Assembly (NCBI GenBank): GCA_045644145.1 | Contig: JAZRGK010000080.1 | Span: forward strand, 65,407-129,406 | Reading direction: 5' to 3' | Source of the DNA: Candidatus Flemingiibacterium sp. | GTDB lineage: Bacteria; Bacillota; Clostridia; Oscillospirales; CAG-272 | DNA length: 64,000 nt | Part shown: piece by piece, positions 17,634 through 32,947 of the stretch | How the letters are laid out: every line of letters starts with the position of its first letter | Position numbering within the stretch: position 1 is the first letter of the stretch | Notes under the pieces: model-generated | Told to the model about the DNA's origin: nothing | Seen by the model: the letters and a program-made list of their open reading frames with translations, nothing else | The model's database searches: none | Program-made: the position numbers and the translations under genes

Positions 17634-18991
17634 CACGGAAGATACCCAAAAGAATACTCGCGAGCCTGCTTTCTTCCATCTCTGCAGGCGTTGTGCCCCG
17701 TATGGGTGCACCCTATATCGCTATCGGAAGAGGCGAGGAGATCGAAGCTCTGCTTTCCGACTTAGAGGCGGTCAACGGCGGCGGCGGCTCTATGCGCTTT
17801 ATTATCGGTAAATACGGAAGCGGCAAGAGCTTTCTTATACAGCTTGTGCGCGGTTTTGCTATTGAGCGAGGATTTATAACGGCTGATGCAGATCTTTCGC
17901 CTGAACGCCGTATCTGCGGTTCAAAGGGTACGGGGATTGCTACCTACCGTGAGCTTATACGCAATCTTGCATCCAAATCCGCCCCCGAGGGCGGTGCGCT
18001 TGGACAGATAATCGGCAAATGGCTGTCGGATTTACAGTCTGCGGTGGCAGCGGAGGGGTATGAGATCGGAAGCGAAGCTTTTATTAAAGAGCTGACAGCA
18101 CGCATATATACCTGCACAAGGGAGCTTGAAGCGCAGATCGGCGGTTTTGATTTTGCCACTGTGCTGACTAAGTATTACAGAGCATACATGGACGGTGACG
18201 AGGAGAAAAAATCCGCCTGCATGCGTTGGCTCAGAGGGGAATATTCCAACAAGACGGAGGCCAGAAATGCTATAGGTACGGCTATCGGCGGCATTGTTGA
18301 CGACGATAATTGGTATGAGTATATCAAGCTGCTTGCGGTATTTTTCAGGAAAATCGGTTATCGGGGATTGGTGGTGTTCATTGACGAGTGCGTGAATCTC
18401 TACAAAATAGCAAACCGAATTTCCCGTGAAAACAACTACGAAAAGCTTCTTTCCATGTTCAACGATACGCTTCAGGGAAAGGCAGAGGGGCTTGCGCTGA
18501 TTTTCGGCGGCACACCTCAGTTCCTTGAAGATACAAGACGCGGACTTTTCTCCTACGAGGCCCTGAGAAGCCGACTTTCGGACGGACAGTTCCAAAAGGA
18601 GGGCGTAAAGAATCTTATCGGTCCCGTAATTCGTCTGCGCCGGCTTTCGGACGATGAGCTTTTTGCTCTTGTTGCCAGACTTACCGCGCTGCATGGTCAG
18701 AACTACTCTTGGGAACCTCGCGTTACAAATGAAGACATGCTTGCTTTTTTAAAGCTCTGCCTTGACAGGGCAGGGGCGGATACTATGATAACTCCCCGCG
18801 AGATCATACGGGACTATGTGACCGTACTAAATATTCTGATGCAGAACGAGAACTTGTCTTTTGCCGACATTGTTGGCAGTGGAATCGTAAGGCTTTCCCA
18901 TGGCGAGGATGAGGAATCGGGGCTTATCGCCGATACAGCGGATAAGTCCGGCACAGTAACGGATTTTTCAGCTATTGATATCGAAATATAA
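17621..18991 (+). CDS. sngB: DUF2791/BrxC-BrxD-type P-loop ATPase (Shango SngB-like)
   Basis: 456 aa. Walker A GKYGSGKS at aa 63-70 and Walker-B-like VVFIDE. The start overlaps the upstream stop by 13 nt. Confidence 0.7.
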   Translation: MAEMTRKIPKRILASLLSSISAGVVPRMGAPYIAIGRGEEIEALLSDLEAVNGGGGSMRFIIGKYGSGKSFLIQLVRGFAIERGFITADADLSPERRICGSKGTGIATYRELIRNLASKSAPEGGALGQIIGKWLSDLQSAVAAEGYEIGSEAFIKELTARIYTCTRELEAQIGGFDFATVLTKYYRAYMDGDEEKKSACMRWLRGEYSNKTEARNAIGTAIGGIVDDDNWYEYIKLLAVFFRKIGYRGLVVFIDECVNLYKIANRISRENNYEKLLSMFNDTLQGKAEGLALIFGGTPQFLEDTRRGLFSYEALRSRLSDGQFQKEGVKNLIGPVIRLRRLSDDELFALVARLTALHGQNYSWEPRVTNEDMLAFLKLCLDRAGADTMITPREIIRDYVTVLNILMQNENLSFADIVGSGIVRLSHGEDEESGLIADTADKSGTVTDFSAIDIEI

Positions 18992-19119
18992 GCATTTCAA
19001 CGGATGGTTGTAAAATTAAGAAAGGATATACTTCCATGAATAAGGCTGTTGAATATATGAACAAGCGATGGCTCGGTGAGCGTGTACGCATGCCGGACGA
19101 AGTTGCTGCGGTATAGACT

Positions 19120-21387
19120 ATGGCAGATAATGACATTTTCTACCGATTCTCGCCGTTTATCCAGGATTTTATATACAGAAACGGTTGGCAGGATCTGCGC
19201 GCGGTACAGCTTGCGGCGGCAGAGGTTCTTTTTGACACAGACAAAAATCTGCTTATCACATCATCTACCGCATCCGGAAAAACCGAAGCGGCATTCTTCC
19301 CCATAATCTCGCAGATGTATGAGGATATGCCGAGGAGCGTAGGAGTGCTGTATATTGCGCCTTTGAAAAGCCTTATAAACGACCAATTTTCAAGACTCGA
19401 TGAGCTTCTTGATATGACGGGGATTCCGGTCTTCCATTGGCATGGTGACGTTGCCGCGTCCCATAAAAATAAGCTTCTTAATGAGCCGAGAGGAATACTT
19501 CAGATAACTCCGGAGTCCCTTGAAAGCATGCTTATGAACCGCTCCAACGATTTTGTGCGGCTTTTCGGCGATCTCCGCTATGTGGTTATCGACGAAATAC
19601 ACACGCTTACCGGCACGGACAGAGGAAATCAGATAATTTGTCAGCTTGTGCGCCTTGCAAGGCTTATCGGACACACGCCAAGGCGAATCGGTCTTTCCGC
19701 TACTGTAGGCGATGCCGTACTTGCGGCAAAATGGCTTGGGGGCGGAACGGATAGGGAAACGGCTGTCCCCGAAATAATCGAGGGAAAAGCAAAATGGCGG
19801 CTTGGGATGGAGCATTTCTTCATTCAAAATGACAGCTTTGACCAAAGTAGTGATTTCTCTATGGGAGATGTATCGGAAGAATCAGGTTCGCCTGAGGCTG
19901 AGCCGTCCCACGGCAGGGTAGAGATAGACTCTGGGTATGAGTATATCTACGACTGCGCCAAAAATAAAAAGGCGATCATATTTTCAAACTCCCGTGAGGA
20001 AACGGAATACGTTACCGCCACTATGCGACAAATTGCGGATAACCGTCACGAGCCTGACATTTTTCTCATTCATCACGGAAATCTTTCCGCTTCAATACGG
20101 GAAGAAGCTGAAACCAAGCTGAAAAACGATGATGAGAAATACGTTACCTGCGCCACGGTCACAATGGAGCTTGGTATAGATATCGGAAAGCTTGAGAGGA
20201 TCATACAGAATGATGCCCCAAACTCGGTTTCAAGCTTTCTCCAACGCCTTGGACGCTCCGGCAGACGTGAAGCACCGCCGGAAATGATGATGGTGTTCCG
20301 CGAGGAAAATCCTCTGCCAAATGCTCCGCTTCCCCAGCTTATTCCTTGGGGATTCTTAAGAGCTATCGCTATTGTTCAGCTCTATATAGAGGAAAAGTTT
20401 ATTGAGCCGCCGTCGGAAAAGAAGCTTCCCTTCAGTCTTGCTTTCCAACAAACCTTAAGTATACTTGCGGCGTCAGGCGAGCTGACGCCAAAACGTCTTG
20501 CGGACACTGTTCTGTCCCTGCCGGCGTTCTCACGCATGGATAGAGAAGACTACCGCACACTTATTATCAGCATGCTTCAGAACGATTTTTTAGAGCTTAC
20601 AGAAGAAAAGGGGCTTATAATCGGTCTTAAAGGCGAGCGGCTTATAAACAGCTTCAAATTCTATGCCGTATTCAAGGACAGCGAGGATTACACCGTTCGC
20701 TGTGAATCGGATGAGATCGGTACTATAACCACACCGCCGCCGGTGGGTGACAGATTTGCCCTTGCAGGACGTGTGTGGGAGGTGGAGGAGCTTGATATAC
20801 TGAGGAAGCTTATATATGTAAAACCGGTCAAGGGAAAAATGGAGGTTTCATGGCCCGGCGACTATGGGGAAATACACACGCGGATCTTGGAGCGCATGCA
20901 CCGCATACTGTGCGAGGATACCGTATATCCGTATCTTAAACCCAATGCGCAGCGCCGACTTGAAATCGTGCGGAATCTTGCTCGCAACACTGGGCTTACT
21001 TCACATTCCATCCTACCGCTTGGGGGATACACATGGTGTCTGTTCCCGTGGCTTGGTACGCGTTCCTTCCGCACACTGCGCAAATTCATTATGAATAATG
21101 CGGCGCGCTTCAAGATAACAAATATTGAGTTTGAGGGCTGTTACTATATGATGTTCAAAATGGAATCGGGCAGTGATTACGGACTTATCAAGGGGCTGTG
21201 TGACGTAATGGAGCGCGAGGGTATTGATAGATCGAAGCTTGTGAATGTAAACGAAATGCCGGTGTTTGAAAAGTACGATGACTATATTCCGGCAGAGCTT
21301 CTTCGCCGTCAGTATGCCGAGGATAAGCTGCGCACGGATGAAATAAGGTTTCGTCTGCCGCAGATACTTTCGGAATACGAGGATTAA
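19120..21387 (+). CDS. sngC: Lhr-like DEAD/DEAH-box (SF2) helicase (Shango SngC-like)
   Basis: 755 aa. Motif I SSTASGKTEA, motif II VVIDEIH, motif III LSAT, motif VI QRLGRSGRR, plus a long C-terminal domain. Confidence 0.8.
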   Translation: MADNDIFYRFSPFIQDFIYRNGWQDLRAVQLAAAEVLFDTDKNLLITSSTASGKTEAAFFPIISQMYEDMPRSVGVLYIAPLKSLINDQFSRLDELLDMTGIPVFHWHGDVAASHKNKLLNEPRGILQITPESLESMLMNRSNDFVRLFGDLRYVVIDEIHTLTGTDRGNQIICQLVRLARLIGHTPRRIGLSATVGDAVLAAKWLGGGTDRETAVPEIIEGKAKWRLGMEHFFIQNDSFDQSSDFSMGDVSEESGSPEAEPSHGRVEIDSGYEYIYDCAKNKKAIIFSNSREETEYVTATMRQIADNRHEPDIFLIHHGNLSASIREEAETKLKNDDEKYVTCATVTMELGIDIGKLERIIQNDAPNSVSSFLQRLGRSGRREAPPEMMMVFREENPLPNAPLPQLIPWGFLRAIAIVQLYIEEKFIEPPSEKKLPFSLAFQQTLSILAASGELTPKRLADTVLSLPAFSRMDREDYRTLIISMLQNDFLELTEEKGLIIGLKGERLINSFKFYAVFKDSEDYTVRCESDEIGTITTPPPVGDRFALAGRVWEVEELDILRKLIYVKPVKGKMEVSWPGDYGEIHTRILERMHRILCEDTVYPYLKPNAQRRLEIVRNLARNTGLTSHSILPLGGYTWCLFPWLGTRSFRTLRKFIMNNAARFKITNIEFEGCYYMMFKMESGSDYGLIKGLCDVMEREGIDRSKLVNVNEMPVFEKYDDYIPAELLRRQYAEDKLRTDEIRFRLPQILSEYED

Positions 21388-22884: not shown

Positions 22885-25224
22885 ATGATTACCAAGATAA
22901 TCAAGCGTGACGGACGCGAAGCTCCGTTCAATATCGAGAAGATCGCACATGCTATATTCATGGCTGCGGAAGCTGTTGGCGGACATGATTACGGTACTGC
23001 CATGAACCTTGCATGCAAGGTTGCCGAAACTCTTGAGGCGGAGTGCGGCGAGCAGTGCACACCTACCGTTGAACAGATTCAGGATACGGTTGAAAAGGTG
23101 CTTGTAAATAACGGTCATGCGCGTACAGCCAAGGAGTTCATTCTTTACAGAGCACAGCGCACAAGAGTACGCGAAATGAACACCAAGCTTATGAAGACCT
23201 ACGAGGACCTTACCTTCAAGGCGGCTAAGGATTCCGATATCAAGCGCGAGAATGCCAATATCAACGGCGATACCGCTATGGGTACTATGCTCAAATACGG
23301 TTCCGAGGGTGCTAAGCAGTTCTACGAGATGTATATTCTCGACCCCGTACACGCAAAGGCGCACAATGAGGGCGATATACATATTCACGATATGGACTTC
23401 CTTACCCTTACCACCACCTGCTGTCAGATAGATATTCTGAAGCTGTTTGAAAAGGGCTTCTCCACCGGACACGGTTTTCTCCGTGCCCCCAACGACATCG
23501 CAAGCTATTCGGCTCTTGCCTGCATTGCGATTCAGTCCAATCAGAACGATCAGCACGGCGGTCAGTCCATACCTAACTTTGAGTACGGCATGGCTCCGGG
23601 GGTAAAAAAGACTTATAAGAAGCATTACAGAAAGAATCTTGCGAAAGCTCTCGAGCTTCTCTGCGGTGTTGAGGATGCAGATAATACCGCAAGAGCACTG
23701 CTTGATTCTCTTAAGAATGAGGCAACTCTTGCAAATACTTCAACATTTGTGTCCGAGATCACCTCTGTGCTTACCGAAAAGTACGGCGCAGAGAATGTTT
23801 CGCGCATTGTGGAATTTACCCGCAAGTATGCCCTTTCGGAAACCGAGCGCGCTACATATCAGGCAATGGAAGCACTTATACACAATCTTAACACTATGCA
23901 CTCCCGTGCAGGTGCGCAGATCCCGTTCAGCTCATTAAACTACGGTCTTGATACCTCTGCAGAGGGCAGACTTGTTATGAAGTCCATTCTTCTTGCTACC
24001 GAGGCAGGTCTTGGAAACGGCGAAACTCCCATATTCCCAATTCAGATACTTAAGGTTAAAGAGGGCATCAACTACAATCCCGGCGATCCGAACTACGACC
24101 TCTTCAAGCTTGCATGCAAGGTTTCCGCGAAGCGTCTGTTCCCCAACTTCTCCTTCATCGACGCTCCTTACAATCTGCGTTACTATCAGCCCGGAAGACC
24201 CGAAACCGAGGTTGCATACATGGGCTGCCGTACCCGCGTAATGGCGAACGTGTACGATAAGGACAATGAAGTTGTGACCGGAAGAGGAAACCTCAGCTTC
24301 ACATCAATAAATCTTCCCAGAATCGCTATTAATGCCAAGGGTAACATTGATTGGTTCTTCGATGAGCTTGACCGCAAAATCAGCATTGTATTCGATCAGC
24401 TTCTTGACCGATTCAAGATTCAGTCCGAGAAGACTGTACGTAACTATCCGTTCCTAATGGGACAGGGAATATGGCTCGGTTCGGACAAGCTTGGTATAGA
24501 CGACAAGGTCGGTGAGGTGCTGAAGCATGGTACACTGACAGTTGGATTCATCGGTCTTGCAGAGTGCCTGAAGGCGCTTACCGGTAAGCATCACGGTGAG
24601 TCGAAAGATGCGCAGAATCTCGGTCTTGAAATAATCGGCTTTATGCGTAAGCGTGCTGACGAAGCCGCAAAGAAGTACGGACTGAATTTCAGTGTCATCG
24701 GAACTCCCGCAGAGGGTCTTTCGGGAAGATTTGTGCGTATGGACAAGAAGAAGTTCGGCGAAATCAAGGGCGTAACCGACCGCGACTATTATACCAACTC
24801 CTTCCATGTTCCCGTATACTATCCCATTTCCGCAAACGAGAAGATCAAGCTTGAGGCACCCTATCATGAGCTTACAAACGCAGGTCACATCACCTACGTT
24901 GAGCTTGACGGTGATCCGATGGAGAACCTTGACGCATTCGAGCAGGTTATCCGCTGCATGAAGGAATCCGGCGTAGGTTACGGCTCTATCAATCACCCTG
25001 TAGACCGCGATCCCGTTTGCGGCTACACGGGCATCATTGGTAACGAGTGCCCCTGCTGTGGCCGTACCGAGGATGACGGAAAGGGTAAGTTCGAGCGTAT
25101 CCGCCGTATTACCGGTTATCTTGTAGGTACGCTTGACAGCTTCAACGACGCAAAACGCTCCGAGGTTGACGACAGAGTTAAGCACTCAGTTGCCGCAACC
25201 GCTGAGGATGAGCTGTTTAATTAA
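22885..25224 (+). CDS. nrdD: Anaerobic ribonucleoside-triphosphate reductase (class III)
   Basis: 779 aa. N-terminal ATP-cone (MITKIIKRDGREAPFNIEKI), a C-terminal Cys cluster (CGYTGIIGNECPCCG) and the glycyl-radical motif RIRRITGYLVG. Confidence 0.95.
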   Translation: MITKIIKRDGREAPFNIEKIAHAIFMAAEAVGGHDYGTAMNLACKVAETLEAECGEQCTPTVEQIQDTVEKVLVNNGHARTAKEFILYRAQRTRVREMNTKLMKTYEDLTFKAAKDSDIKRENANINGDTAMGTMLKYGSEGAKQFYEMYILDPVHAKAHNEGDIHIHDMDFLTLTTTCCQIDILKLFEKGFSTGHGFLRAPNDIASYSALACIAIQSNQNDQHGGQSIPNFEYGMAPGVKKTYKKHYRKNLAKALELLCGVEDADNTARALLDSLKNEATLANTSTFVSEITSVLTEKYGAENVSRIVEFTRKYALSETERATYQAMEALIHNLNTMHSRAGAQIPFSSLNYGLDTSAEGRLVMKSILLATEAGLGNGETPIFPIQILKVKEGINYNPGDPNYDLFKLACKVSAKRLFPNFSFIDAPYNLRYYQPGRPETEVAYMGCRTRVMANVYDKDNEVVTGRGNLSFTSINLPRIAINAKGNIDWFFDELDRKISIVFDQLLDRFKIQSEKTVRNYPFLMGQGIWLGSDKLGIDDKVGEVLKHGTLTVGFIGLAECLKALTGKHHGESKDAQNLGLEIIGFMRKRADEAAKKYGLNFSVIGTPAEGLSGRFVRMDKKKFGEIKGVTDRDYYTNSFHVPVYYPISANEKIKLEAPYHELTNAGHITYVELDGDPMENLDAFEQVIRCMKESGVGYGSINHPVDRDPVCGYTGIIGNECPCCGRTEDDGKGKFERIRRITGYLVGTLDSFNDAKRSEVDDRVKHSVAATAEDELFN

Positions 25225-25246: not shown

Positions 25247-25345
25247 CACCGCCGAGAGTAACCGTAACGGTCGCTCTCGGCGGCTTTGTTATAGACTGAT
25301 TTACAATTTTATGATATAATTATTTTAATTCCCCCAACCTTTTCA
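25247..25345 (+). repeat. Terminator-promoter cassette, copy A
   Basis: Hairpin ccgccgagag...ctctcggcgg (25249-25283), then tttgttatagactgatttacaattttaTGaTATAAT (TATAAT at 25315-25320) and ccaacctttt. Near-identical to copy B. Confidence 0.85.
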
Positions 25346-25416
25346 TTATGATTTGTGTCTAAAAGACAAGCGCTTAGAAAATGGAAATTTCCGATTTCAG
25401 AGAAAGGAGAGTGCAT

Positions 25417-28400
25417 ATGTACTATCAAAACGAACCGGACGAAACGCTGGTAATGCTTACACTTGCGGGCGAGCAGACGGCATATGAGGTTTTGGTAACA
25501 CGTTATCAGAAGCTTGTGATATCCGCCGCGATGAAGATAACCAAAAATCACTTTATGGCGGAAGATGCCGCGCAGGATGCCTTTGTTACGGCTTGGATGA
25601 AACTGAACACTCTGCAAGATACGAAAAAGTACGCTTCATGGGTGTGTCGTATAGCTAAAAACTGTGCTCTTAATATGATAAGCAGATACCGCAGCTTCCT
25701 TCCGCTTGATGTGGTGGATAACCTAAATATTTTCGACGACAGTTCGGATAACCCGGCAGAGTTGTATGCACTGTCCGAGGAACGAAATGAAGTTGATAAA
25801 ACCGTTGAGCGGCTGCCGGAAAAGGTACGTCAGATCATTCATCTGCATTATTTTGAAGACCTTTCTATCGCGGAGATCGCAGACCGGATGCGAATTTCCG
25901 AAGGAACGGTCAAGTGGCAGCTTCACGACGGCAGAAAACGAATCAGAAAGGAACTTTGCGCTATGAATGAAAAGTATAACGATACTCTTGTACAGCGTGT
26001 TATGAAAAAGGTTGAAGAACTGAAATTATGGCAGGTCAAGAACGATAAAAGCGGTTTTGAAAAGGTATACAAAGAAGTGCTTCGCGAGGTAGAGGAGCTT
26101 CCCGAATGCAGAGAAAAACAGCACGCGCTTGCCGATGTCCTGATGCGCGGTTGGTGGTGGCTTCCCGGCAAAAAGAACGATGCTCTGTTTTCCCGTATTG
26201 CGGATGCCGCCATGGAAGGTAAAAACGAGGAGGTAATGACCTTTATCGTCACCCGTGAGGATTCAAAGGTATACGGCAGTGCGAAAGTGAATTTCATCCG
26301 TGACAAGCAGATTCCCCGTCTTGAAAAAGCAGGCTTTATTAAGGCTCTCGGACGCGAATGGTTCTGGCTTGGCAACGAGTTGTTCCGAGAGGGAAAAGTA
26401 GAGGAAGGTCACGCCGCATATGACAAGGTTGAAGAAATTCTCACAAGCGGAGATGCTTATCGCATACTCGTGCCTTATGCAAGAAAGATGGAAGAAGTGC
26501 TCTCCACACGCTACAAGGATACGGGCAAAGAACGATATCGTATCGGCGGTTCGGCAGAGGAGTACCGCATAATTGACGGAAAACTGCACTACTTCTCCGA
26601 GCAAGGCTTTGGAGAAGGCTGGGTTGCCTCGGTAAATTATAAGAGTGCCCAGATTTTCCGCAATGCATCAAGCTGCGACGGACAATTCTTTGCGGATATT
26701 GCAGTGGGCGAAACTCACACCGGCACTGACGGTACAAAGCTTTCCTATATTTCGGACGGTGAATCGCTGAACACGCCTGCAGGCAGATTTGACGGATGTC
26801 AGCTCTGGGAAGTAAGACGTTGGACGGACACACAAAAAATCGTATGCAAAACCTACTACAAAGAGGGCATCGGCATTGTTCGCCAGGAGCTTACAACTGA
26901 TGGAGCGACCGACAGCCATACGCTTAGTGCATATGAAATTAAAGGCGGAGAGGGACTTCTTCCCCTTTTGCCAGGCAATAGTTGGGAATACGCCCCATCG
27001 TATTCCCTAGATACGATTTCGTCCGAACTTAAAATCACTGTGGATTTTGTTTGTGATGAACGAATACTTGTTTCTCATTTCGAAAACACCGAACGACTTA
27101 AGTACGACGAAAATTCCTGGCTTGATGCCGTGCAAGAAATTGCCAATGAATACTGCCGTGAGAATGGCGGAAACTGGCGTATATGCGACGTTTATCCTGC
27201 CATGGAGCGTGCGGAGCGGCTTGCCGTGACTCCTATGGAAAAGGCACACACCAAAGCGGCGGTATCTACGGTACGGAGAATACTCGCTACAGACCCAACC
27301 TTCAATCCCGACCACACTGCCACGGGACATTGGAATTTCTTCTGCAGGACATACATCAGAAAGAAGTCCGATTCTCTTATTCTTACCGATTATAACTCCA
27401 GATGGAGTTTCGAGTGGAAAAATACCGGCAGCATGGGCGCAGCAGAGGATCCTATTCTGTATAACGATATCTACGGTATTCTCCGGGATGCGGCAAACTG
27501 CCTCTGGTCTGACGAATGGCGAATCGGCGCATCACCTATCGTGGAATATGACAGGTACGGAAGCGCAATCAAAACGCAGATCACCTGCGAGGATGGCGGA
27601 ACAGTCACGACGAAGGCCGGAACTTTTGAAAACTGCTTCAAGCTTTGCCTTGATATTAGCGGGATGGGCGACGGACTTACCTACCGAGGTGGCAAGAAGG
27701 CTTACTATTTTGCCGATGGGATCGGAATTGTCCGCACCGAGAACGAATTTTGCGGCGGTGCAAAGACAGCAGTTTACGAGCTTACCTCATACGAGGGTGT
27801 GGGCGAGGGATTCATGCCCATAGCGGACGGTCTTGTTCGTCGATATGATGCCCTCGACCTAACTGACGGCTTTGTGGGTGCTGTAGAATACACCTATGCG
27901 GCGGATGAGGACGGCGACATCGTTGTATTTGCTGACCGCACAGGTATCCGCGAGCTTCCGCCGACGATCACGCAGTATAGCGCGATTCAGGGCGAGATGA
28001 TTGAACAGCAGCTCTGCGATGCCGGAAAATGGCAAGAAGGTCAGCTTATGTATGGGGTGAACAACTTCCATCTGATACTTCATCTTCTTGGAAGACCCAG
28101 CCACAATATTCACACCGCTAAAAGATCGGTGGATGTACAGAGCTTCAATATGAAAATCATGGAGCTTCTGGGTGAAAACGGCGAGGTGCCGCCTGCGTGG
28201 TACAGCCTCTATTCATGGACTGCACTTATCAGATCCGCTGCCTTATTCGGCAACGGCGAAAAGGACGAGGGATACCGCAGTCTTGAAACAGCCATTGAAT
28301 ACGCCGAAAAAGCTGCCGCTTTTAATAAAGGTGCGCTTCTTGATGCCGGCAACAGTCATGTTCTCGGTGGAGTCAAGTATGTGAAGGGATGCGGCAGAAT

Positions 28401-28581
28401 CCAGCTTCCGAACGGAAGGTGCGAGCCGATCAACTATGACTATTGGATGGACTCATATGACAAGCTCATTTTTGACGTGCTGAACGCCCCCCGCGGATGG
28501 TCATGGTTTAATTCCGCACGCGGGGAGGACCGGTTCAAGGAATGCATTGAGCGCGCAGGTAAAATAGGCCAAAAGGCATAA
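25417..28581 (+). CDS. Sigma-70/ECF-like factor fused to a ~870-aa C-terminal domain lacking a TM segment
   Basis: Trimmed to the ATG at 25417, after AAAGGAGAG. Region 2 (AEDAAQDAFVTAWMKL) and region 4 HTH (LSIAEIADRMRISEGTVKWQLHDGRKRI) lie in the first ~190 aa. The remainder has no hydrophobic TM segment and contains an internal duplicated module. Confidence 0.8.
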   Translation: MYYQNEPDETLVMLTLAGEQTAYEVLVTRYQKLVISAAMKITKNHFMAEDAAQDAFVTAWMKLNTLQDTKKYASWVCRIAKNCALNMISRYRSFLPLDVVDNLNIFDDSSDNPAELYALSEERNEVDKTVERLPEKVRQIIHLHYFEDLSIAEIADRMRISEGTVKWQLHDGRKRIRKELCAMNEKYNDTLVQRVMKKVEELKLWQVKNDKSGFEKVYKEVLREVEELPECREKQHALADVLMRGWWWLPGKKNDALFSRIADAAMEGKNEEVMTFIVTREDSKVYGSAKVNFIRDKQIPRLEKAGFIKALGREWFWLGNELFREGKVEEGHAAYDKVEEILTSGDAYRILVPYARKMEEVLSTRYKDTGKERYRIGGSAEEYRIIDGKLHYFSEQGFGEGWVASVNYKSAQIFRNASSCDGQFFADIAVGETHTGTDGTKLSYISDGESLNTPAGRFDGCQLWEVRRWTDTQKIVCKTYYKEGIGIVRQELTTDGATDSHTLSAYEIKGGEGLLPLLPGNSWEYAPSYSLDTISSELKITVDFVCDERILVSHFENTERLKYDENSWLDAVQEIANEYCRENGGNWRICDVYPAMERAERLAVTPMEKAHTKAAVSTVRRILATDPTFNPDHTATGHWNFFCRTYIRKKSDSLILTDYNSRWSFEWKNTGSMGAAEDPILYNDIYGILRDAANCLWSDEWRIGASPIVEYDRYGSAIKTQITCEDGGTVTTKAGTFENCFKLCLDISGMGDGLTYRGGKKAYYFADGIGIVRTENEFCGGAKTAVYELTSYEGVGEGFMPIADGLVRRYDALDLTDGFVGAVEYTYAADEDGDIVVFADRTGIRELPPTITQYSAIQGEMIEQQLCDAGKWQEGQLMYGVNNFHLILHLLGRPSHNIHTAKRSVDVQSFNMKIMELLGENGEVPPAWYSLYSWTALIRSAALFGNGEKDEGYRSLETAIEYAEKAAAFNKGALLDAGNSHVLGGVKYVKGCGRIQLPNGRCEPINYDYWMDSYDKLIFDVLNAPRGWSWFNSARGEDRFKECIERAGKIGQKA

Positions 28582-28587
28582 TAATAC

Positions 28588-28686
28588 TACCGCCGAGAGC
28601 AACCGTTGTGGTTGCTCTCGGCGGGTTTGTTGTAGACTGATTCACAATTTTATGATATAATTATAAAAAAGTTCCAACCTTTTGTG
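28588..28686 (+). repeat. Terminator-promoter cassette, copy B
   Basis: Hairpin at 28590-28624, then tttgttgtagactgattcacaattttaTGaTATAAT (TATAAT at 28656-28661) and ccaacctttt. Confidence 0.85.
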
Positions 28687-28732
28687 GAATCCGTGTCTAT
28701 ATAGGTGAAAGCTTTCAACGAGGTACAAACAA

Positions 28733-30415
28733 GTGAACAGACAAGATGCCGAAAAGATTATAATTGAATATCTCAAACCCATATTCGGCTTTACGCTGAA
28801 GCGGTGTAAAAACGCACACGATGCGGAAGATCTATCGCAGGATATTGTATTAAAGGCGTTCCGCGCACTTCTCATCAAAGACGATATCGGGGATGTCAGC
28901 AAATTTATTTGGACGATTGCTCATAATGCGTTCAGCAATTACTATAGAGATGCCGCCAAAAGCATCATAGGTGTATCGATTGATGAGGTGGCAGAGATAA
29001 TTGCTGATCCCGACTCGATGTTGGATAATGACGATAATGCTGATACCATACATAGATTGCAGAGCGAAAAAGCGTATCTTTCCAAACTCCAACGCAAGAT
29101 CGTAATTGCATACTATTTTGAAAATCGCAAGCAAGCCGATATTGCTAAAGATTTGAATATTCCTCTCGGAACGGTCAAGTGGCACTTGTTTGATGCGAAA
29201 AAAGAATTAAAACGAGGTATAGATACTATGAGAAAAACAAGTGAACTGAAATTTAATCCCATCAAATTCCACACATACGGTATTAACGGTTCCATTGGAA
29301 CAAAAAACTTAGATGAATTCTTTCGGTCTACTTTGGCACAGAATATTTGCTATTGCGTACGCAATGAGGCAAAAACAATCAATGAGATTGCCGATGATAT
29401 TGGTGTTTCGCCTGTTTATGTGGAAACTGAGGTTAATTTCCTTGAAGAGTACGGCTTTTTGGAGGAGCAAAGGGACAAGTATATCGTCAATTTCATAATC
29501 AGTGAACCAACTGCAGAACTGCTCACAATGCAGGATGCGATGTATAAGAAAGCCGCAGGATTGTTTGCAAATGAGCTTTACGATGAACTGATTGCATCGG
29601 GACTGATTGATCATTCCGATATTTTGTGTGGACAGACCGATAAACTGATCACCTTGACGGAAAGTACTCGTGCGGATCAAAACTTCCTTCTGTGGTCGCT
29701 TATCCCGTATATTGCGGCAGAATCTGGCGAAAAATTGGTGGAAGATAAAATTTCCTTTGAAGAGGTTGCGACTGTTCGTCCAGATGGTGCTCATAATATT
29801 TGTCACGCAGCCGTTGTCCCGGATAATGTGGAGTTGCCAGAAGATTATGTATATATGAAAAACTGGTGCGGGCCGTTCAGATATCCGAACAAACAGTATT
29901 CCGAGGGGAACATTTCGTTTTGGCAGCTTGATACTGAGTGGTCGGGACGAAGAATGAGTGTCAGCAAAATGTACGCAGAGAATGTTGATCGAGTTTTAGC
30001 TCTCGAAAAGCGTGAGGATGAGGACGGTCTGCTTTCAAAGGATGAGTACGCTTGGCTATCAGAGCTTGGTTATATCAAAACCAACGGAGATTATGACGGA
30101 CACTTTAAGTCCTCTTGGCAGATCGTAACGCTTACGAGCAAGGAAATCAAAAATAAACTCCTTGCAGTTGGCGAGAATATTAAGATAAAACACAAGGATA
30201 AATTTGATGCAATCAAAGCACATTATGTCGAAGCGGTACTCGATTCCGTGCCGGCTCATCTACGCCGGGTAAAGGAATATGAGCTTCAGTTTCTATTCCA
30301 CGCTGACGGATGGTTCCTACTTCACTGTATTGTTGCACTTTTGAGCAACGGCAAGCTAAAGCAGCCTACCGATGGGCAAAGGAAAGTGCTTACAACGCTC
30401 ATTGTTCAAAATTAA
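28733..30415 (+). CDS. Sigma-70/ECF-like factor fused to a ~370-aa C-terminal domain containing an extra winged-helix-like segment
   Basis: 560 aa with a GTG start after GAGGT. Region 2 (AEDLSQDIVLKAFRAL) and region 4 (ADIAKDLNIPLGTVKWHLFDAKKEL). A downstream HTH-like segment reads TINEIADDIGVSPVYVETEVNFLEEYGFL. Confidence 0.75.
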   Translation: MNRQDAEKIIIEYLKPIFGFTLKRCKNAHDAEDLSQDIVLKAFRALLIKDDIGDVSKFIWTIAHNAFSNYYRDAAKSIIGVSIDEVAEIIADPDSMLDNDDNADTIHRLQSEKAYLSKLQRKIVIAYYFENRKQADIAKDLNIPLGTVKWHLFDAKKELKRGIDTMRKTSELKFNPIKFHTYGINGSIGTKNLDEFFRSTLAQNICYCVRNEAKTINEIADDIGVSPVYVETEVNFLEEYGFLEEQRDKYIVNFIISEPTAELLTMQDAMYKKAAGLFANELYDELIASGLIDHSDILCGQTDKLITLTESTRADQNFLLWSLIPYIAAESGEKLVEDKISFEEVATVRPDGAHNICHAAVVPDNVELPEDYVYMKNWCGPFRYPNKQYSEGNISFWQLDTEWSGRRMSVSKMYAENVDRVLALEKREDEDGLLSKDEYAWLSELGYIKTNGDYDGHFKSSWQIVTLTSKEIKNKLLAVGENIKIKHKDKFDAIKAHYVEAVLDSVPAHLRRVKEYELQFLFHADGWFLLHCIVALLSNGKLKQPTDGQRKVLTTLIVQN

Positions 30416-30421
30416 TAGCAG

Positions 30422-30458
30422 CACCGCCGAGAGTAACCGTTGTGGTCGCTCTCGGCGG
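30422..30458 (+). repeat. Terminator-promoter cassette, copy C (hairpin only, truncated)
   Basis: The hairpin ccgccgagag...ctctcggcgg (30424-30458) is conserved. The promoter half of the cassette is absent, and similarity to copies A and B stops at 30458, 12 nt before the recombinase stop codon. Confidence 0.8.
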
Positions 30459-30470
30459 TAATGTTAAGCC

Positions 30471-32066
30471 TTAATTCATATAATCATAGTAAAAAACAAA
30501 TCCGAACCAATTTCGATTTACGAAATAGTTCGGATTTGTTACGTTTGGTGACCCTAAAGAGTCCACAGACGAACACTCGGAGAGTGCGCTTTCTACGTCA
30601 GAAATGGTAATATTTACACCTATATGACCGCCTCCGGAGGGGTCAAACACGATTTTTGCATGATCATCGTACAGGTATATGGCTACAATAAAGTTTTTTA
30701 TAAGATTTTCACGGTATTTTGGATCGTCTATATCACCGTTCCGGAACGATAGGAGAAATGTCTTTAGTTCTTCTACATTGATTTCCGGTATATTAACGGT
30801 AAGCTCGGCAAGCTGTGCCTTCACTTTTGCCTGGTCAGATTCAAGCTCAATCAGCCTGCTCTTTGTGGTATCTGTGAGTACACCTGCCTCGATGGCACGC
30901 ATAATGTTTTGTATTGCCACATCGTTGGCTTTTTTTCGTTCTTCAAGAATCACGATGTCCGGGTTATCCCGTTGCTCATCGAAGTACCGTGCAACGCCTT
31001 CGGCAATCTGCGTAATAACCGGCTCATTCAAGATGTGCTGGTAAACACCCATTGCTACATCGTATTCGAGCTGATCTCGTCGGACGTCTTTCTTTCGGCA
31101 TCCTCCGCCGGATCGTTTATCTTTGCAAGCGTAATAGTGGTGTTTTGTTCCTGATTTGCTTGTACCGCACATTCCTATCATCGGCTCTCCGCATTCACCA
31201 CAGAAGAGAAGTCCCGTAAGAAGGTATCTTTCGTTGGTGCGGCTTTTGCCGCGCGGATTCTTTTTGTTTTTCAAAATATACTGTACCTCCTCGAATTGAT
31301 GTTTTTCGATTATTTGAGGCATACCACCTTCGACGCGGATTCCGTCGAATATGTATGTACCCGTGTAGCGTTCATTTGATACGATAGTAGCGAAGCTGTT
31401 CTTGCCCCATTCGTTGCCACGACGATTTTTTATACCTCTCGCGTTGAGATCGGCGGCGATACTCATAAACATCTCGCCTGCTTCCACGCGAGCGAATATT
31501 TCTTTAACTATTGGGGCGGTGGTTTCGTCTATTACGAAGTGCCCGGCTTTGTCCGATTTATACCCATACGGCGCAGGACCGTTTGCGCGGCACTTCATAG
31601 CGTTGTCGGCTTGGTTGCGCTTTATATCCTCGCTCAAATTCTCGCTGTAAAACTGATTGAGATTCATCATTGTACGCCTTGCGAATCTGCCGGAGGCGTT
31701 ATCCGCAAAGGCTTCTTTAGCGTAGAAGACTTGTATGCCGTATTTATCCATTTCGCTTTCAAATATGAGCGCGTTGACCATATTTCGGGCGATACGGCTT
31801 GATTTGTAAGCGATTACAGCGGCGAAGACACCTTTTTCAGCATCCCGGCGAAGCTTCTGATACTGCGGTCGGCGGTCGGAACGTCCCGATACTGCGCTGT
31901 CTGCATAGACGCCGACAACAGAAAGATTATTGGCAGCGGCATACGCCTTGCACTCTGCAACTTGCTGTTCTATGGATTCTTCGCGCTGATTATGCGATGA
32001 AAAGCGAGCATATATCACGGCAGGTATTTCGCCGAGAGGGGATATTTGCTTGTTTGTTCGCGCCAT
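30471..32066 (-). CDS. Large serine recombinase (prophage integrase)
   Basis: Trimmed to the ATG at 32066, after AAAGGAG. Resolvase-type N-terminus (AVIYARFSSHNQREESIEQQ), recombinase domain, zinc ribbon (CGECGEPM...HHYYAC) and a coiled-coil region. Confidence 0.9.
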   Translation of the reverse strand: MARTNKQISPLGEIPAVIYARFSSHNQREESIEQQVAECKAYAAANNLSVVGVYADSAVSGRSDRRPQYQKLRRDAEKGVFAAVIAYKSSRIARNMVNALIFESEMDKYGIQVFYAKEAFADNASGRFARRTMMNLNQFYSENLSEDIKRNQADNAMKCRANGPAPYGYKSDKAGHFVIDETTAPIVKEIFARVEAGEMFMSIAADLNARGIKNRRGNEWGKNSFATIVSNERYTGTYIFDGIRVEGGMPQIIEKHQFEEVQYILKNKKNPRGKSRTNERYLLTGLLFCGECGEPMIGMCGTSKSGTKHHYYACKDKRSGGGCRKKDVRRDQLEYDVAMGVYQHILNEPVITQIAEGVARYFDEQRDNPDIVILEERKKANDVAIQNIMRAIEAGVLTDTTKSRLIELESDQAKVKAQLAELTVNIPEINVEELKTFLLSFRNGDIDDPKYRENLIKNFIVAIYLYDDHAKIVFDPSGGGHIGVNITISDVESALSECSSVDSLGSPNVTNPNYFVNRNWFGFVFYYDYMN

Positions 32067-32106
32067 GTATATGCTCCTTTCTGTGTTGTGCGGGAGAGGG
32101 GATTTT

Positions 32107-32823
32107 TTACACCCTACCAATAACACGACCAACGCATTTGATTGTGTCGTATTGGCTGAATTTAATATCCTTATACTTTTCATTGAGGGAGATCAGACGG
32201 TCTACCCCATATTTTTTTATATAGCCATCGCCGTTGACGATGTATACGCCGACTTCGCCCTCATCGAGCGCGTCACATTGTTCAACAAGCACTACGTCGC
32301 CGTCATAGTATATTGGTTCCATGCTGTCGCCCGATATGGTAAGCGCGAAATCCGCTTGACGAGCTTCGGGAGAATCGGGAACAGATATAGTTTCCCATGC
32401 ATTGTTATCATCAAGCATAAAACCGATTCCGGCAGATACCTTATACAAGCTGTGGCGAATGGAATACATGGGTTGCTTTTTCTCCGGCTTTATAGGTGTT
32501 ATGCTACGAGTGTATTCTTCGTCAAGAACCATACCCATTATCTTTTTGCCGTGTGCATCAAGCATACGGTATTTTTTTATCATCTCGCGTTCTGAAGCGC
32601 TTAATATATCGCCCTTCATTGATTCTATTTCATCTTGATACAAATAGTTTGCATCACATTTTAATGCGGCGAAGAGCTTTATAAGAATATTCTCATTAGG
32701 TGAGCTTATTCCGCTTTCATAGTTTCCTATGCTCCCTTTTGAAACACCAACCAATTTAGCAAGCTCGGGCTGTGTGTAACCGAGTTCTTCCCGGCGTTGC
32801 TTGATTCTTGTGCTTAAACTCAT
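32107..32823 (-). CDS. CI/LexA-like phage repressor (XRE HTH + S24 peptidase)
   Basis: Trimmed to the ATG at 32823. HTH region RREELGYTQPELAKLVGVSKGSIGNYESG. Candidate Ala-Gly cleavage site (VSAGIG). S24 catalytic motif SGDSMEP and a downstream Lys (GYIKKYG). Confidence 0.85.
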   Translation of the reverse strand: MSLSTRIKQRREELGYTQPELAKLVGVSKGSIGNYESGISSPNENILIKLFAALKCDANYLYQDEIESMKGDILSASEREMIKKYRMLDAHGKKIMGMVLDEEYTRSITPIKPEKKQPMYSIRHSLYKVSAGIGFMLDDNNAWETISVPDSPEARQADFALTISGDSMEPIYYDGDVVLVEQCDALDEGEVGVYIVNGDGYIKKYGVDRLISLNEKYKDIKFSQYDTIKCVGRVIGRV

Positions 32824-32918
32824 AATTAAAACCTCTTTTATCATTGAAGTTACAACACGATTATAACACACACGAGAGTACAAGTCAAGAAAAATCTCAA
32901 AAAACTTGTAAAAAACTC

Positions 32919-32947
32919 TTGACATCACAAGAAATATATGCTATAAT
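32919..32947 (+). promoter_or_regulatory. Consensus early (lytic) promoter in the CI/Cro intergenic switch
   Basis: TTGACA (32919-32924), 17 nt, TATAAT (32942-32947). It is flanked by repeated AAAAAACTTG motifs (about 32899 and 32960) and the inverted repeat ACAAGT/ACTTGT. Confidence 0.7.

Follow-up and report, generated by a model that had tools for sequence, protein, structure and literature searches.

Two ECF-type sigma factors with large fused soluble extensions in gut Clostridia as putative one-component regulators

Two adjacent genes in a 64,000-nucleotide stretch of Candidatus Flemingiibacterium sp. DNA (the window) encode proteins that begin as sigma factors and continue for hundreds of residues. 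We wanted to know whether these are genuine sigma factors and, if so, how their activity might be controlled; as a preliminary description made from the sequence letters had pointed out, no separate anti-sigma gene lies near them. The genes, which we refer to as sig1 and sig2, are preceded by nrdD; sig1 is followed by another sigma fusion, sig2, and then by a serine recombinase gene and prophage. The units occupy the place where nrdG usually follows nrdD. Our analysis confirmed the observation on which the preliminary description was based; its interpretation as a whole is partly supported. The genes and their sigma cores are as follows.

25381/25417-28581, + strand: sig1 open reading frame, intact, 1054 aa
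25417-25965, + strand: sig1 ECF sigma core (aa 1-183), with sigma-2, a linker of ~30 aa and sigma-4 with recognition helix GTVKWQLH
28733-30415, + strand: sig2 open reading frame, intact, 560 aa
28733-29227, + strand: sig2 ECF sigma core (aa 1-165), with a DAED motif and sigma-4 helix GTVKWHLF

The likely start of sig1 is the ATG at 25417, with AGGAG ahead of it (25405-25409), and sig2 starts with the GTG at 28733, preceded by GAGG (28720-28723). Sigma regions 2 and 4 had been recognised by eye at both N-termini, and the profile searches bear this out. Sigma70_r2 (PF04542) scored 46.8 bits for sig1 and 38.2 bits for sig2 (curated Pfam cut-off 24), Sigma70_r4_2 (PF08281) 55.3 and 41.9 bits (cut-off 25.7), and the NCBIfam model TIGR02937 (sigma70-ECF) 96.4 and 71.1 bits (cut-off 42.9). 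In NCBIfam this superfamily model alone passes; neither protein reached an equivalog or subfamily cut-off. Sigma70_r1 and Sigma70_r3 gave no match in Pfam, and the linker that joins sigma-2 to sigma-4 is ~30 aa. The nearest solved relatives of the cores are SigW, SigL, SigH and SigE, with SigW being the best for sig1 (E 1.5e-22), and the core-binding motif reads AEDAAQD in sig1 and DAED in sig2. Judged by these matches, both cores, which share ~26% identity, are genuine ECF (group 4) domains of the sigma-70 type, with putative polymerase binding and promoter use. Identity with SigI was rejected: no SigI model was among the best 25 NCBIfam matches per protein, and no RsgI-type gene is located downstream.

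The sig1-type fusion is present in at least 222 species genomes, and the sig2-type fusion at no fewer than 217 metagenome loci, of gut Clostridia. Among 80 sig1 loci, the extension is in frame behind the sigma core in every complete locus, and the same arrangement is found across 417 clusters at 50% identity; apparent stand-alone copies of the extension were contig-end cuts or frameshifts. Sigma core and extension thus form a real, obligate fusion. The genomic context of the orthologues is not conserved, and only a few loci have sig1 and sig2 side by side; the two genes are independent single-gene units. The parts behind the sigma cores are the following.

25966-26202, + strand: sig1 helical segment after sigma-4 (aa 184-262, RVMKKVEE...RGWWWLPG), the most conserved stretch of the protein
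26203-28581, + strand: remaining sig1 extension (aa 263-1054 and stop), with helical repeats, beta domain 1, helices, beta domain 2 and a C-terminal helical domain
29228-30415, + strand: sig2 extension (aa 166-560 and stop), with a winged helix-turn-helix at ~aa 193-255 and then an alpha/beta region of ~300 aa

The sig1 extension indeed comprises ~870 aa, and that of sig2 ~395 aa rather than the 370 first given; the two are not homologous. Neither contains a membrane segment, as had been proposed: averaged over 19 residues, Kyte-Doolittle hydropathy peaks at 0.96 in sig1 and at 1.59 in sig2, the latter in a His/Asp-containing helix (residues 520-538). The check by HMM searches, AlphaFold2 and Foldseek that had been suggested for the C-terminal regions returned weak DUF3108_like, TPR and winged-helix matches and no solved structure. 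The sig1 extension was modelled with a mean pLDDT of 82.6 and a pTM of 0.77; both beta domains are weakly DUF3108_like in Pfam, which also gave one TPR_2 match (E 0.006, 17 bits vs a cut-off of 27), and nothing in the PDB was found at E < 0.005. A helix-turn-helix was undetectable in the Pfam matches and the AlphaFold2 model of this extension. Residues 184-262 show 93% column majority, with 40 of 79 residues invariant, which is above both sigma-2 and sigma-4, and they have the lowest pLDDT (41-59) of a model that omits the sigma core. This combination of top conservation and poor modelling without the core makes them a candidate docking segment.

The sig2 extension was modelled with a pLDDT of 72 and a pTM of 0.72. 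Its Pfam helix-turn-helix matches are weak, and in Foldseek searches of the PDB and BFVD the winged helix alone matched (~55-100 residues aligned, E >= 0.08), resembling IclR, ArsR, IdeR and SelB-type domains; the alpha/beta region has no known relative in either database. No significant match to a whole extension was found in the PDB or BFVD for sig1 or sig2. Pfam gave only the weak, partial matches mentioned, with no zf-HC2 or WD40 in either extension and no SnoaL in the separate extension pieces, even at E <= 10. The preliminary description had held that its hypothesis would weaken if the N-termini failed to match sigma-70 models or if the extensions matched a known anti-sigma or enzyme family; the N-termini do match such models and the extensions match no such family (Pfam, PDB, BFVD), and the hypothesis is therefore not weakened on this account.

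The claim that known fused extensions measure one to two hundred residues proved incorrect. Reviews list 19-26 ECF groups in which a regulatory extension is fused to the sigma factor (PMC7826278, PMC8999054), including ECF48/52/53 with up to ~400 aa and ECF57 with WD40-like repeats (PMC8999054). In ECF42 (Streptomyces venezuelae Sven_0747, Pseudomonas putida ECF-10), as in sig1, an ECF core carries a soluble helical-repeat extension, and an anti-sigma gene is lacking. In ECF42 the proximal stretch of the extension is thought to touch sigma-4 (PMC8999054, PMC7826278), and sig1 has its highly conserved helical segment right after sigma-4, followed by helical repeats. However, the ECF42 extension is ~200 aa long and made of TPRs, whereas that of sig1 has ~870 aa, two beta domains, a further helical domain and a TPR match below the Pfam cut-off. 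In addition, no YCII-type neighbour lies beside sig1 or sig2, and their hosts are uncultured gut Clostridia. Membership of ECF42 was rejected on the TPR_2 score and an extension that is four times longer and consists mostly of beta domains. ECF41 proteins (M. tuberculosis SigJ, Bacillus licheniformis Ecf41) are likewise single polypeptides lacking an anti-sigma factor, in which the fused domain modulates sigma activity (PMC3426412, PMC5766207), but their extension is ~100 aa with a SnoaL fold and differs from ours in size and folds; with no SnoaL at E <= 10 and extensions of 870 and 395 aa, this membership was also rejected. ECF48/52/53 and ECF57 share long extensions with sig1 and sig2, but the zinc-finger anti-sigma domains and membrane helices of the former and the WD40-like repeats of the latter are absent here; the hydropathy maxima and the missing zf-HC2 match led us to reject membership of ECF48/52/53.

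Outside the ECF sigmas, cellulolytic clostridia contain several paralogous SigI factors per genome, each with an autoregulated family-specific promoter (PMC6056542, PMC10575876). The sigma fusions similarly form paralogous sets with family-specific promoters in Clostridia, but SigI is non-ECF, carries a C-terminal domain of its own and is under the control of a separate membrane anti-sigma, RsgI, whereas the putative regulator of sig1 and sig2 is fused and cytoplasmic. We found no published account of this type of architecture, in line with the view that it had not been characterised. The "one-component sigma" idea fits the very large soluble extensions and the missing anti-sigma gene, and the category as such is already established (PMC7826278, PMC8999054); the domain make-up and the gene-unit anatomy are undescribed. 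Such genes, each with a conserved putative terminator and a predicted double promoter of its own, occur in hundreds of uncultured gut Clostridia, so sig1 and sig2 are a real variant of a known way to wire a putative sensor straight to RNA polymerase. The non-coding parts of the two units are listed below.

25249-25283, + strand: hairpin 1, 15-bp GC-rich stem then CTTTGTT; 5' boundary of the sig1 unit; -28.2 kcal/mol, z -5.8
25292-25320, + strand: predicted sigma-A-type promoter of sig1, TAGACT, 17 nt, TG-n-TATAAT, extended -10
25334-25360, + strand: predicted ECF-type promoter of sig1, CCAACCTTTT, 11 nt, GTGTCT; begins 14 nt past the sigma-A -10; 0 expected
25368-25392, + strand: two perfect palindromes of the sig1 leader, AAGCGCTT at 25368-25375 (~+1) and GGAAATTTCC at 25383-25392 (~+15)
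28590-28624, + strand: hairpin 2, 9 nt past the sig1 stop and 8 nt ahead of the sig2 sigma-A -35; -35.7 kcal/mol
28633-28661, + strand: predicted sigma-A-type promoter of sig2, TAGACT, 17 nt, TG-n-TATAAT
28674-28698, + strand: predicted ECF-type promoter of sig2, CCAACCTTTT, 9 nt, GTGTCT
28706-28717, + strand: perfect 12-nt palindrome of the sig2 leader, TGAAAGCTTTCA, at ~+1 of the ECF-type promoter
30424-30458, + strand: hairpin 3, 9 nt past the sig2 stop, with no promoter afterwards; -33.2 kcal/mol

The repeated cassette said to bracket the genes is present as three hairpins and two sigma-A-type promoters at the places given for them, but the third hairpin lacks a promoter, and the second, ECF-type promoter of each cassette (25334-25360, 28674-28698) had been overlooked. 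The sequence TAGACT-N17-TGATATAAT has just these two copies in 64 kb (0 expected), and the whole sig1 stretch including the spacer, TTGTTATAGACtAATTCACAAaTTTATGATATAAT, is also found upstream of many sig1 orthologues. The CCAACC...GTGTCT motif conserved ahead of the genes agrees with the AAC / GTC-type promoter of ECF sigmas. It is kept ahead of nearly every sig1 orthologue, and ahead of sig2 orthologues, in both cases down to 54% protein identity. In 1.47 Mb, 143 of the 145 copies of CCAACCTTTT-N-GTGTCT directly precede sigma-fusion genes, and the only other candidate target found was one ABC-transporter promoter (locus L066).

We favour, with a probability of roughly 0.6, the reading that sig1 and sig2 are "one-component" ECF sigmas, self-contained and activated by themselves or by each other, whose regulator is fused as a large cytoplasmic C-terminal module. 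At the start of a unit, the strong hairpin would block incoming transcription, and the sigma-A-type extended -10 promoter would supply basal expression. The ECF-type promoter (CCAACCTTTT / GTGTCT) 14 nt further on could then be read by the encoded sigma or its sister, giving positive feedback. Next come the ~+1 palindrome, the gene and a second hairpin, a putative terminator from the same sequence family. The extension would keep the core inactive, or active, until a cytoplasmic cue arrives, plausibly a ligand or partner: in sig1 through a putative contact of the invariant segment past sigma-4 and a ligand in the beta-barrel-like domains, in sig2 through a ligand or partner that acts on the winged-helix module. 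What we infer here is that the genes are autoregulated, that the extension controls how active the sigma is, and what kind of signal is involved; for ECF41, ECF42 and ECF238, autoregulation and cis-regulation by fused extensions are established, and extensions correlate with missing anti-sigma factors (PMC7826278, PMC8999054, PMC3426412). The favoured reading does not need the +1 palindromes or the conserved hairpin sequence.

Who reads the ECF-type promoter bears directly on the proposed feedback. The -35 and -10 elements, CCAACCTTTT and GTGTCT, are near-identical in the two units despite cores of ~26% identity; one of the two sigmas, or a third, might therefore read both promoters, which would place the genes in another's regulon instead of making them autoregulated. 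That most sig2 orthologues lack a sigma-A promoter of their own would suit such an arrangement. We nevertheless regard it as improbable: the motif is nearly confined to the front of sigma-fusion genes, and the sig1 and sig2 families (A and B) share both the unusual sigma-4 helix GTVKW(Q/H)L and the -35 element CCAACC, whereas paralogue families with a GTVK(S/Y)RL helix have other -35 and -10 elements. As far as sequences can tell, promoter specificity thus tracks the sigma-4 helix across paralogue families. Moreover, the spacer is consistently 2 nt shorter in the sig2 family, as expected if each family reads its own promoter.

The leader palindromes suggest another role for the extension, that of a second DNA-binding or targeting module instead of a sensor gate. 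Dimers of the putative fusion regulator would bind the family-specific palindrome at +1 of their own promoter, in sig2 through the winged helix, and either repress that promoter, as negative feedback, or help recruit polymerase. A single chain would then serve both as sigma factor and as classical one-component regulator. IclR, MarR and ArsR regulators, its best Foldseek matches, also combine a winged helix with a larger domain, and a palindromic site lies at sig2's own promoter; however, sig2 matches them by the winged helix alone, its distal domain being unmatched, and to our knowledge these families have not been found fused behind a sigma core. The winged helix belongs to the best-conserved regions of sig2, with a column majority of 91% (sigma-4, 94%). 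Perfect palindromes of 8 nt or more lie at fixed offsets past the -10 in 53 of 60 unique sig1 leaders (~6 in shuffles), and such palindromes in 46 of 47 sig2 leaders. Variants remain symmetric, in sig1 as GAGCGCTC, AAGTACTT, GAGTACTC, GGGAATTCCC and GAGATCTC, and in sig2 as TGAATGCATTCA (L152, L153, L155), where a double change preserves symmetry. The palindrome differs from one paralogue family to the next (TGAATATTCA, TGAACGTTCA, AAACCGGTTT), and the palindromes are all too short and loop-less for RNA hairpins. Against this stand the two palindromes in sig1 leaders when the sig1 extension, not homologous to that of sig2, has no detectable helix-turn-helix, and the fact that a palindrome suits a dimer while a sigma factor in holoenzyme is a monomer. 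We therefore consider a DNA-binding extension rather unlikely, and keep to the fused regulator as the preferred reading.

The hairpin CCGCCGAGAG...CTCTCGGCGG has its three copies and no others in 64 kb, with 0 expected from shuffles; folding energies range from -28 to -36 kcal/mol (z -5.8 to -7.7). Their stems are thus very stable. In a terminator scan, hairpin 2 passes whole, whereas hairpin 1 does so only by way of another, 7-bp inner stem (25269-25285), its full stem being followed by the CTTTGTT tail; after hairpin 3 comes TAATGTTAAG, a poor U-tract. The hairpin sequence is conserved across species, much better than coding DNA and with compensatory changes, although the covariation count is inflated because hairpin selection demanded outer-stem pairing. 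It is almost confined to the neighbourhood of sigma-fusion genes, at their 3' end and, in some loci, at the 5' end too. Such properties recall a recombination site like integron attC or REP-type elements, with hairpin-bounded units as mobile cassettes. This would account for the variable genomic context, for arrays of 2-4 units with hairpins between them (L062, L064, L024), for units located where nrdG would be expected, and for DNA similarity to 40 orthologous sig1 loci that starts at 25249-25335, at or just past the upstream hairpin, and never reaches into nrdD. We consider it very improbable, since none of the loci examined has an integron integrase, RAYT or transposase next to a unit, and the serine recombinase gene (30471-32183), which ends 12 nt beyond hairpin 3, belongs to the prophage. 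The hairpin family is present, 5-33 nt past the stop codon, in just ~40% of sig1 orthologues, the others having unrelated terminators, and a selected strong terminator homogenised by gene conversion is a simpler account. An integron-type gene cassette in particular was rejected: each unit has two promoters of its own, which integron cassettes do not, IntI was found in no locus and the sole recombinase is that of the prophage.

The preliminary description had also suggested that the cassette was amplified as a modular unit, which holds only in part. The sigma cores are ~26% identical and the extensions unrelated, and a recent tandem duplication of sig1 and sig2 is therefore ruled out. The two cassettes themselves show 89% identity across 76 nt. 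In many species, the ancestral region ahead of sig1-family genes consists of the hairpin and double-promoter cassette; ahead of sig2 orthologues this cassette is rare (L105, and partially L064 and L116), so that sig2 probably acquired it by copying or conversion within this lineage.

Both sigma-fusion genes, sig1 and sig2, are intact in the window. The likeliest start of sig1 is the ATG at position 25417, with an AGGAG seven nt ahead, and the gene runs to a stop at 28581 (1054 aa); sig2 (560 aa) extends from the GTG at 28733, which a GAGG precedes, to 30415. The preliminary description had recognized sigma-type N-termini by eye, and indeed both proteins match Sigma70_r2 and Sigma70_r4_2 over the Pfam curated cut-offs and exceed the cut-off of TIGR02937, the NCBIfam model of the ECF superfamily. 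None of the NCBIfam equivalog or subfamily models reached its cut-off for either protein. The nearest solved relatives by sequence are SigW, SigL, SigH and SigE, with the match confined to the first 165-185 residues, and the acidic core-binding motif reads AEDAAQD in sig1 and DAED in sig2.

No convincing membrane segment was found in either protein, the top 19-residue hydropathy means being 0.96 (sig1) and 1.59 (sig2). The large extensions are therefore free of transmembrane segments, as had been proposed, and a membrane-anchored fused anti-sigma factor is ruled out. An anti-sigma gene is likewise missing near sig1 and sig2 in the window, where the neighbours are nrdD upstream and a large serine recombinase gene and prophage downstream; this agrees with the earlier observation that no separate anti-sigma gene lies nearby.

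When the sig1 extension alone was used as query, 693 relatives were obtained, the best 120 of which are 63-80% identical, nearly all ~1050 aa long and equipped with the sigma domains. The sig2 extension alone gave 1919 relatives, mostly of 554-566 aa and also with sigma domains. A scan of one genome per species yielded 222 stretches for the sig1 extension, from which 80 loci were retained. All 80 belong to uncultured Clostridia (Oscillospiraceae, Acutalibacteraceae, Faecousia, Flemingiibacterium and unnamed Eubacteriales), and those with a named source come mostly from ruminant or other animal guts. For the sig2 extension, 217 metagenome stretches were found, human gut samples among them. A whole-library search placed the sig1 family in at least 417 clusters at 50% identity, which comprise a long form of ~1050 aa and a short form of ~840 aa without the last helical domain; in both, the match begins around residue 182, i.e., behind the sigma core. 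Several sig1 paralogues can be present per genome, as in the loci L004, L076 and L078 from one MAG.

At every complete sig1 locus the extension follows in frame directly behind the sigma core, and the hundreds of full-length orthologues of conserved length rule out a gene-fusion artefact or pseudogene. A natural split into a sigma gene and a separate regulator gene is also ruled out, because the short “C-terminal only” proteins have other explanations: the proteins P0283, P0303 and P0347 are cut by contig ends, and the copies in loci L020, L037, L059, L064 and L166 carry frameshifts at differing positions. Nor did sig1 and sig2 arise by recent tandem duplication, since their sigma cores are ~26% identical and their extensions are unrelated to each other (hhalign probability <=2%). 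A conserved sig1-sig2 pair or operon can be dismissed as well, as the two are adjacent in only three other loci, in reverse order.

The profile and fold comparison of the C-terminal regions, which the preliminary description had suggested, returned only weak matches, to DUF3108_like, TPR_2 and winged helices. The AlphaFold2 model of the sig1 extension (mean pLDDT 82.6, pTM 0.77) contains the following parts.
aa 190-363: helices
~aa 374-560: beta domain 1
~aa 568-625: helices between the beta domains
~aa 636-845: beta domain 2
~aa 854-1052: C-terminal helical domain
Against Pfam, sig1 gave two partial DUF3108_like matches, one per beta domain, and one sub-threshold TPR_2 match. A Foldseek search of the model against the PDB gave no match under E 0.005; the weak matches, low in TM-score, were open beta-barrel folds or folds for hydrophobic ligands. 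The model of the sig2 extension (pLDDT 72) contains a winged helix-turn-helix at ~aa 193-255, which matches the winged helices of IclR, IdeR, ArsR/SmtB and SelB in PDB/BFVD at E >=0.03, and the rest of this extension has no match in PDB or BFVD. Fold assignment for both extensions failed except for this winged helix.

The best-conserved stretch of sig1, exceeding the sigma domains themselves, is the helical segment of aa 184-262 right behind sigma-4 (93% column majority; 40 of 79 residues invariant). It is also the part modelled with the lowest confidence when the sigma core is left out. From this combination of highest conservation and poorest modelling we infer that the segment would need a partner surface, most simply that of sigma-2/sigma-4.

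Among the branches of bacterial signal transduction, that of the ECF sigma factors with fused extensions is, to our knowledge, the least understood, with only a few types of extension studied so far. They form an established class, at times referred to as the “one-component systems of the sigma world”, with 19 ECF groups carrying C-terminal extensions in the 2021 classification and 26 with N- or C-terminal extensions in a 2022 review (PMC7826278, PMC8999054). Characterized cases include the SnoaL-like extension of ECF41 (~100 aa), the TPR extension of ECF42 (~200 aa), the cysteine-rich extension of ECF238, the WD40-like extension of ECF57, and the fused membrane anti-sigma factors of ECF48/52/53, which reach ~400 aa (PMC7826278, PMC8999054). 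The earlier statement that known extensions span only one to two hundred residues is therefore too narrow, as those of ECF48/52/53 are longer. Sig1 and sig2 show none of the defining features of these groups, and our literature search found no published description of either architecture, in line with the earlier impression that it was uncharacterized. The first interpretation, of one-component sigma factors with a repeated cassette, is reasonable but partly overstated. A regulator fused to an ECF sigma factor is a known principle, and there is as yet no evidence of a new one. What is new are the modules, their size, their obligate fusion over hundreds of clusters, and the conserved anatomy of the unit. 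The two genes represent a large untouched family, sig1 mostly from the gut genomes of animals, ruminants above all, and sig2 from human gut metagenomes as well, with an unusually large sensor-like extension that lacks solved or annotated relatives.

Each unit is bounded by a hairpin, of which there are exactly three copies in the 64 kb, none being expected by chance.
25249-25283: hairpin 1
28590-28624: hairpin 2
30424-30458: hairpin 3
Their folding energies range from -28 to -36 kcal/mol. The TAGACT-N17-TGATATAAT promoter occurs exactly twice in the window. Hairpins and promoters lie where they were first reported, in numbers beyond chance, and over 76 nt cassettes 1 and 2 share 89% identity. 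The hairpin family follows the pattern CCGCCGAGAG-yrACC-loop-GGTyr-CTCTCGGCGG, the sequence of which is conserved across species. Compensatory changes occur in 12 of the 15 stem pairs, a number inflated for the outer pairs, since selection of the sequences demanded pairing of the outer stem. In ~40% of the sig1 orthologues such a hairpin lies 5-33 nt past the stop codon; the family is also found behind sig2 and other fusion paralogues of 540-570 aa, between the genes of arrays of two to four fusion genes (L062, L064, L024, L023, L028, L040), and almost never beside other genes. The simplest reading is that the hairpin is a strong terminator and insulator, selected and homogenized between neighbouring units, although it may instead have a role in recombination or protein binding. 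An Rfam search with the cassette and leader turned up no known RNA family; its only match, SpF25 on the hairpin-promoter cassette (28590-28679), reached 27.7 bits where the gathering score is 48 (E 0.23).

The similarity of the window's DNA to orthologous loci begins at 25249-25335, never enters nrdD, and stops at or just past the downstream hairpin, and the flanking genes vary between loci. These limits define the conserved unit as hairpin, promoters, gene and hairpin. The full sigma-A stretch TTGTTATAGACtAATTCACAAaTTTATGATATAAT is found again, together with its spacer, ahead of the sig1 orthologues of many species, whereas the cassette is rare upstream of sig2 orthologues (only L105 and, partly, L064 and L116). 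For the sig1 family the cassette is an ancestral feature. The proposal of an amplified module thus does not hold for a recent event, sig1 and sig2 not being recent duplicates; it survives insofar as the cassette was probably copied or converted onto sig2 in the lineage of the window.

An ECF-type promoter, CCAACCTTTT-N11-GTGTCT, begins 14 nt past the sigma-A -10 element of sig1. Both the -35 and the -10 element recur in the sig2 orthologues, where the spacer is shorter by 2 nt (CCAACCTTTT-N9-GTGTCT). An AAC/GTC form is typical of ECF promoters, and CCAACCTTTT...GTGTCT has that form. In the 1.47 Mb of related loci plus window the motif occurs 145 times, 143 of them directly upstream of a sigma-fusion gene; of the other two, one stands before a fusion gene that is truncated and one before the gene of a sugar ABC-transporter binding protein (L066). 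In both sig1 and sig2 the recognition helix of sigma-4 reads GTVKW(Q/H)L, which is unusual; fusion paralogues in which it reads GTVK(S/Y)RL differ in their -35 and -10 elements. The specificity of the motif and the shared helix support a predicted auto- or cross-activation of the sigma-fusion genes. Neighbouring target genes were not apparent, as the window holds no further copy of the motif and the 1.47 Mb only one non-sigma target. This regulatory anatomy is unusually easy to read, and with a fixed motif any complete genome can be searched directly for the regulon.

The lone sig1-type promoter before a non-sigma gene among the loci scanned lies at L066 ~5247 (minus strand), upstream of two genes that point away from the sig1 orthologue and encode a permease and the binding lipoprotein (470 aa) of a sugar-type ABC transporter. 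These transporter genes are a possible regulon member.

Perfect palindromes follow GTGTCT at a constant distance of 6-8 nt, i.e., at about +1.
25368-25392: sig1 leader palindromes, AAGCGCTT and a second ~14 nt on (GGAAATTTCC in the window)
28706-28717: sig2 leader palindrome, TGAAAGCTTTCA
They were found in 53 of 60 unique sig1 leaders and 46 of 47 unique sig2 leaders (~6 and ~5 in shuffles), are family-specific across the leaders in L001-L163, and have variants that keep the symmetry (GAGCGCTC, AAGTACTT, GAGTACTC, TGAATGCATTCA, GGGAATTCCC, GAGATCTC). RNA hairpins are ruled out, because the palindromes are too short and loop-less; the RNA structure of the leaders is weak (z-scores -1.98 and +0.51). 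They resemble operator sites that a dimeric protein would bind, and the winged helix of sig2 would be an obvious candidate; unlike sig2, the sig1 extension shows no winged-helix domain. It is conceivable that in these self-contained, hairpin-bounded cassettes a single polypeptide would serve its own promoter in two ways, as the sigma factor and as a dimeric regulator that binds the family-specific +1 palindrome as its operator, with families diversifying and spreading as units in gut Clostridia. We regard this as unlikely, at a probability of roughly 15%; if true, sigma factors would have a way of controlling promoters and of expanding as regulators that is undescribed for any of them. The post-sigma-4 segment, the +1 palindromes and the hairpin offer handles on sigma control without an anti-sigma factor, and the compact, insulated units are possible orthogonal switches for synthetic biology in Clostridia.

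Further fusion paralogues, of 520-570 aa, stand in tandem with sig1 orthologues in L023, L024, L028, L040, L062 and L064, with sigma cores 25-35% identical to that of sig2. At least those of L023, L024 and L062 (1793) lie behind the same hairpin and sigma-A cassette as sig1 and sig2, and every one has an ECF-type promoter and a palindrome of its own; in L028, L040 and L064 the upstream hairpins are different or unseen. A third ECF fusion type, a sigma core with a ~240-aa beta-rich extension, was found at L102 2479-3828 and also at L084 7119, L108 7124, L109 5285 and L110 5286. This type comes with a promoter (AACCTTT-N13-CGTCTATA) and a palindrome (AAACCGGTTT) of its own, and lies ~1.1 kb (L102, L109) to ~3 kb (L084, L108) downstream of sig2 orthologues. 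At L005 1639-1800, a degenerate hairpin and promoter cassette precedes a gene that is no sigma fusion and is served by a separate consensus promoter. Its product begins with MIKIGDFAK, from which we guess at a MerR-like regulator, and the cassette may be what is left of a sigma unit since lost.

A phage or defence origin of sig1 and sig2 is unsupported: PADLOC gave nothing meaningful for them, and PHROG 1740, a 567-position profile of a phage “RNA polymerase sigma factor”, covers only their sigma cores, which indicates that phages also encode ECF-like sigma factors with long, different extensions. In the window, nrdD (anaerobic ribonucleotide reductase, 22885-25224) has no nrdG activase gene directly downstream; that place is taken by the two sigma units and the prophage, the far side of which lies beyond the window. 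The prophage-like stretch (30471-64000) has its insertion point directly adjoining the last sigma unit, and beyond the repressor and its promoters the long ORFs are nearly all on the plus strand up to the window end. The surroundings include the following features.
15903-21387, plus strand: match to the Shango anti-phage defence system, three genes (PADLOC)
30471-32183, minus strand: large serine recombinase, ending 12 nt from hairpin 3
32107-32928, minus strand: CI/LexA-like repressor (HTH_3 and Peptidase_S24)
32860-32947: divergent consensus promoters
In PADLOC the three genes match SngA (E 2.4e-48), SngB (9.8e-167) and SngC (4.6e-241); Pfam recognizes TerB_N/TerB_C, BrxC_BrxD ATPase and DEAD helicase domains in them.
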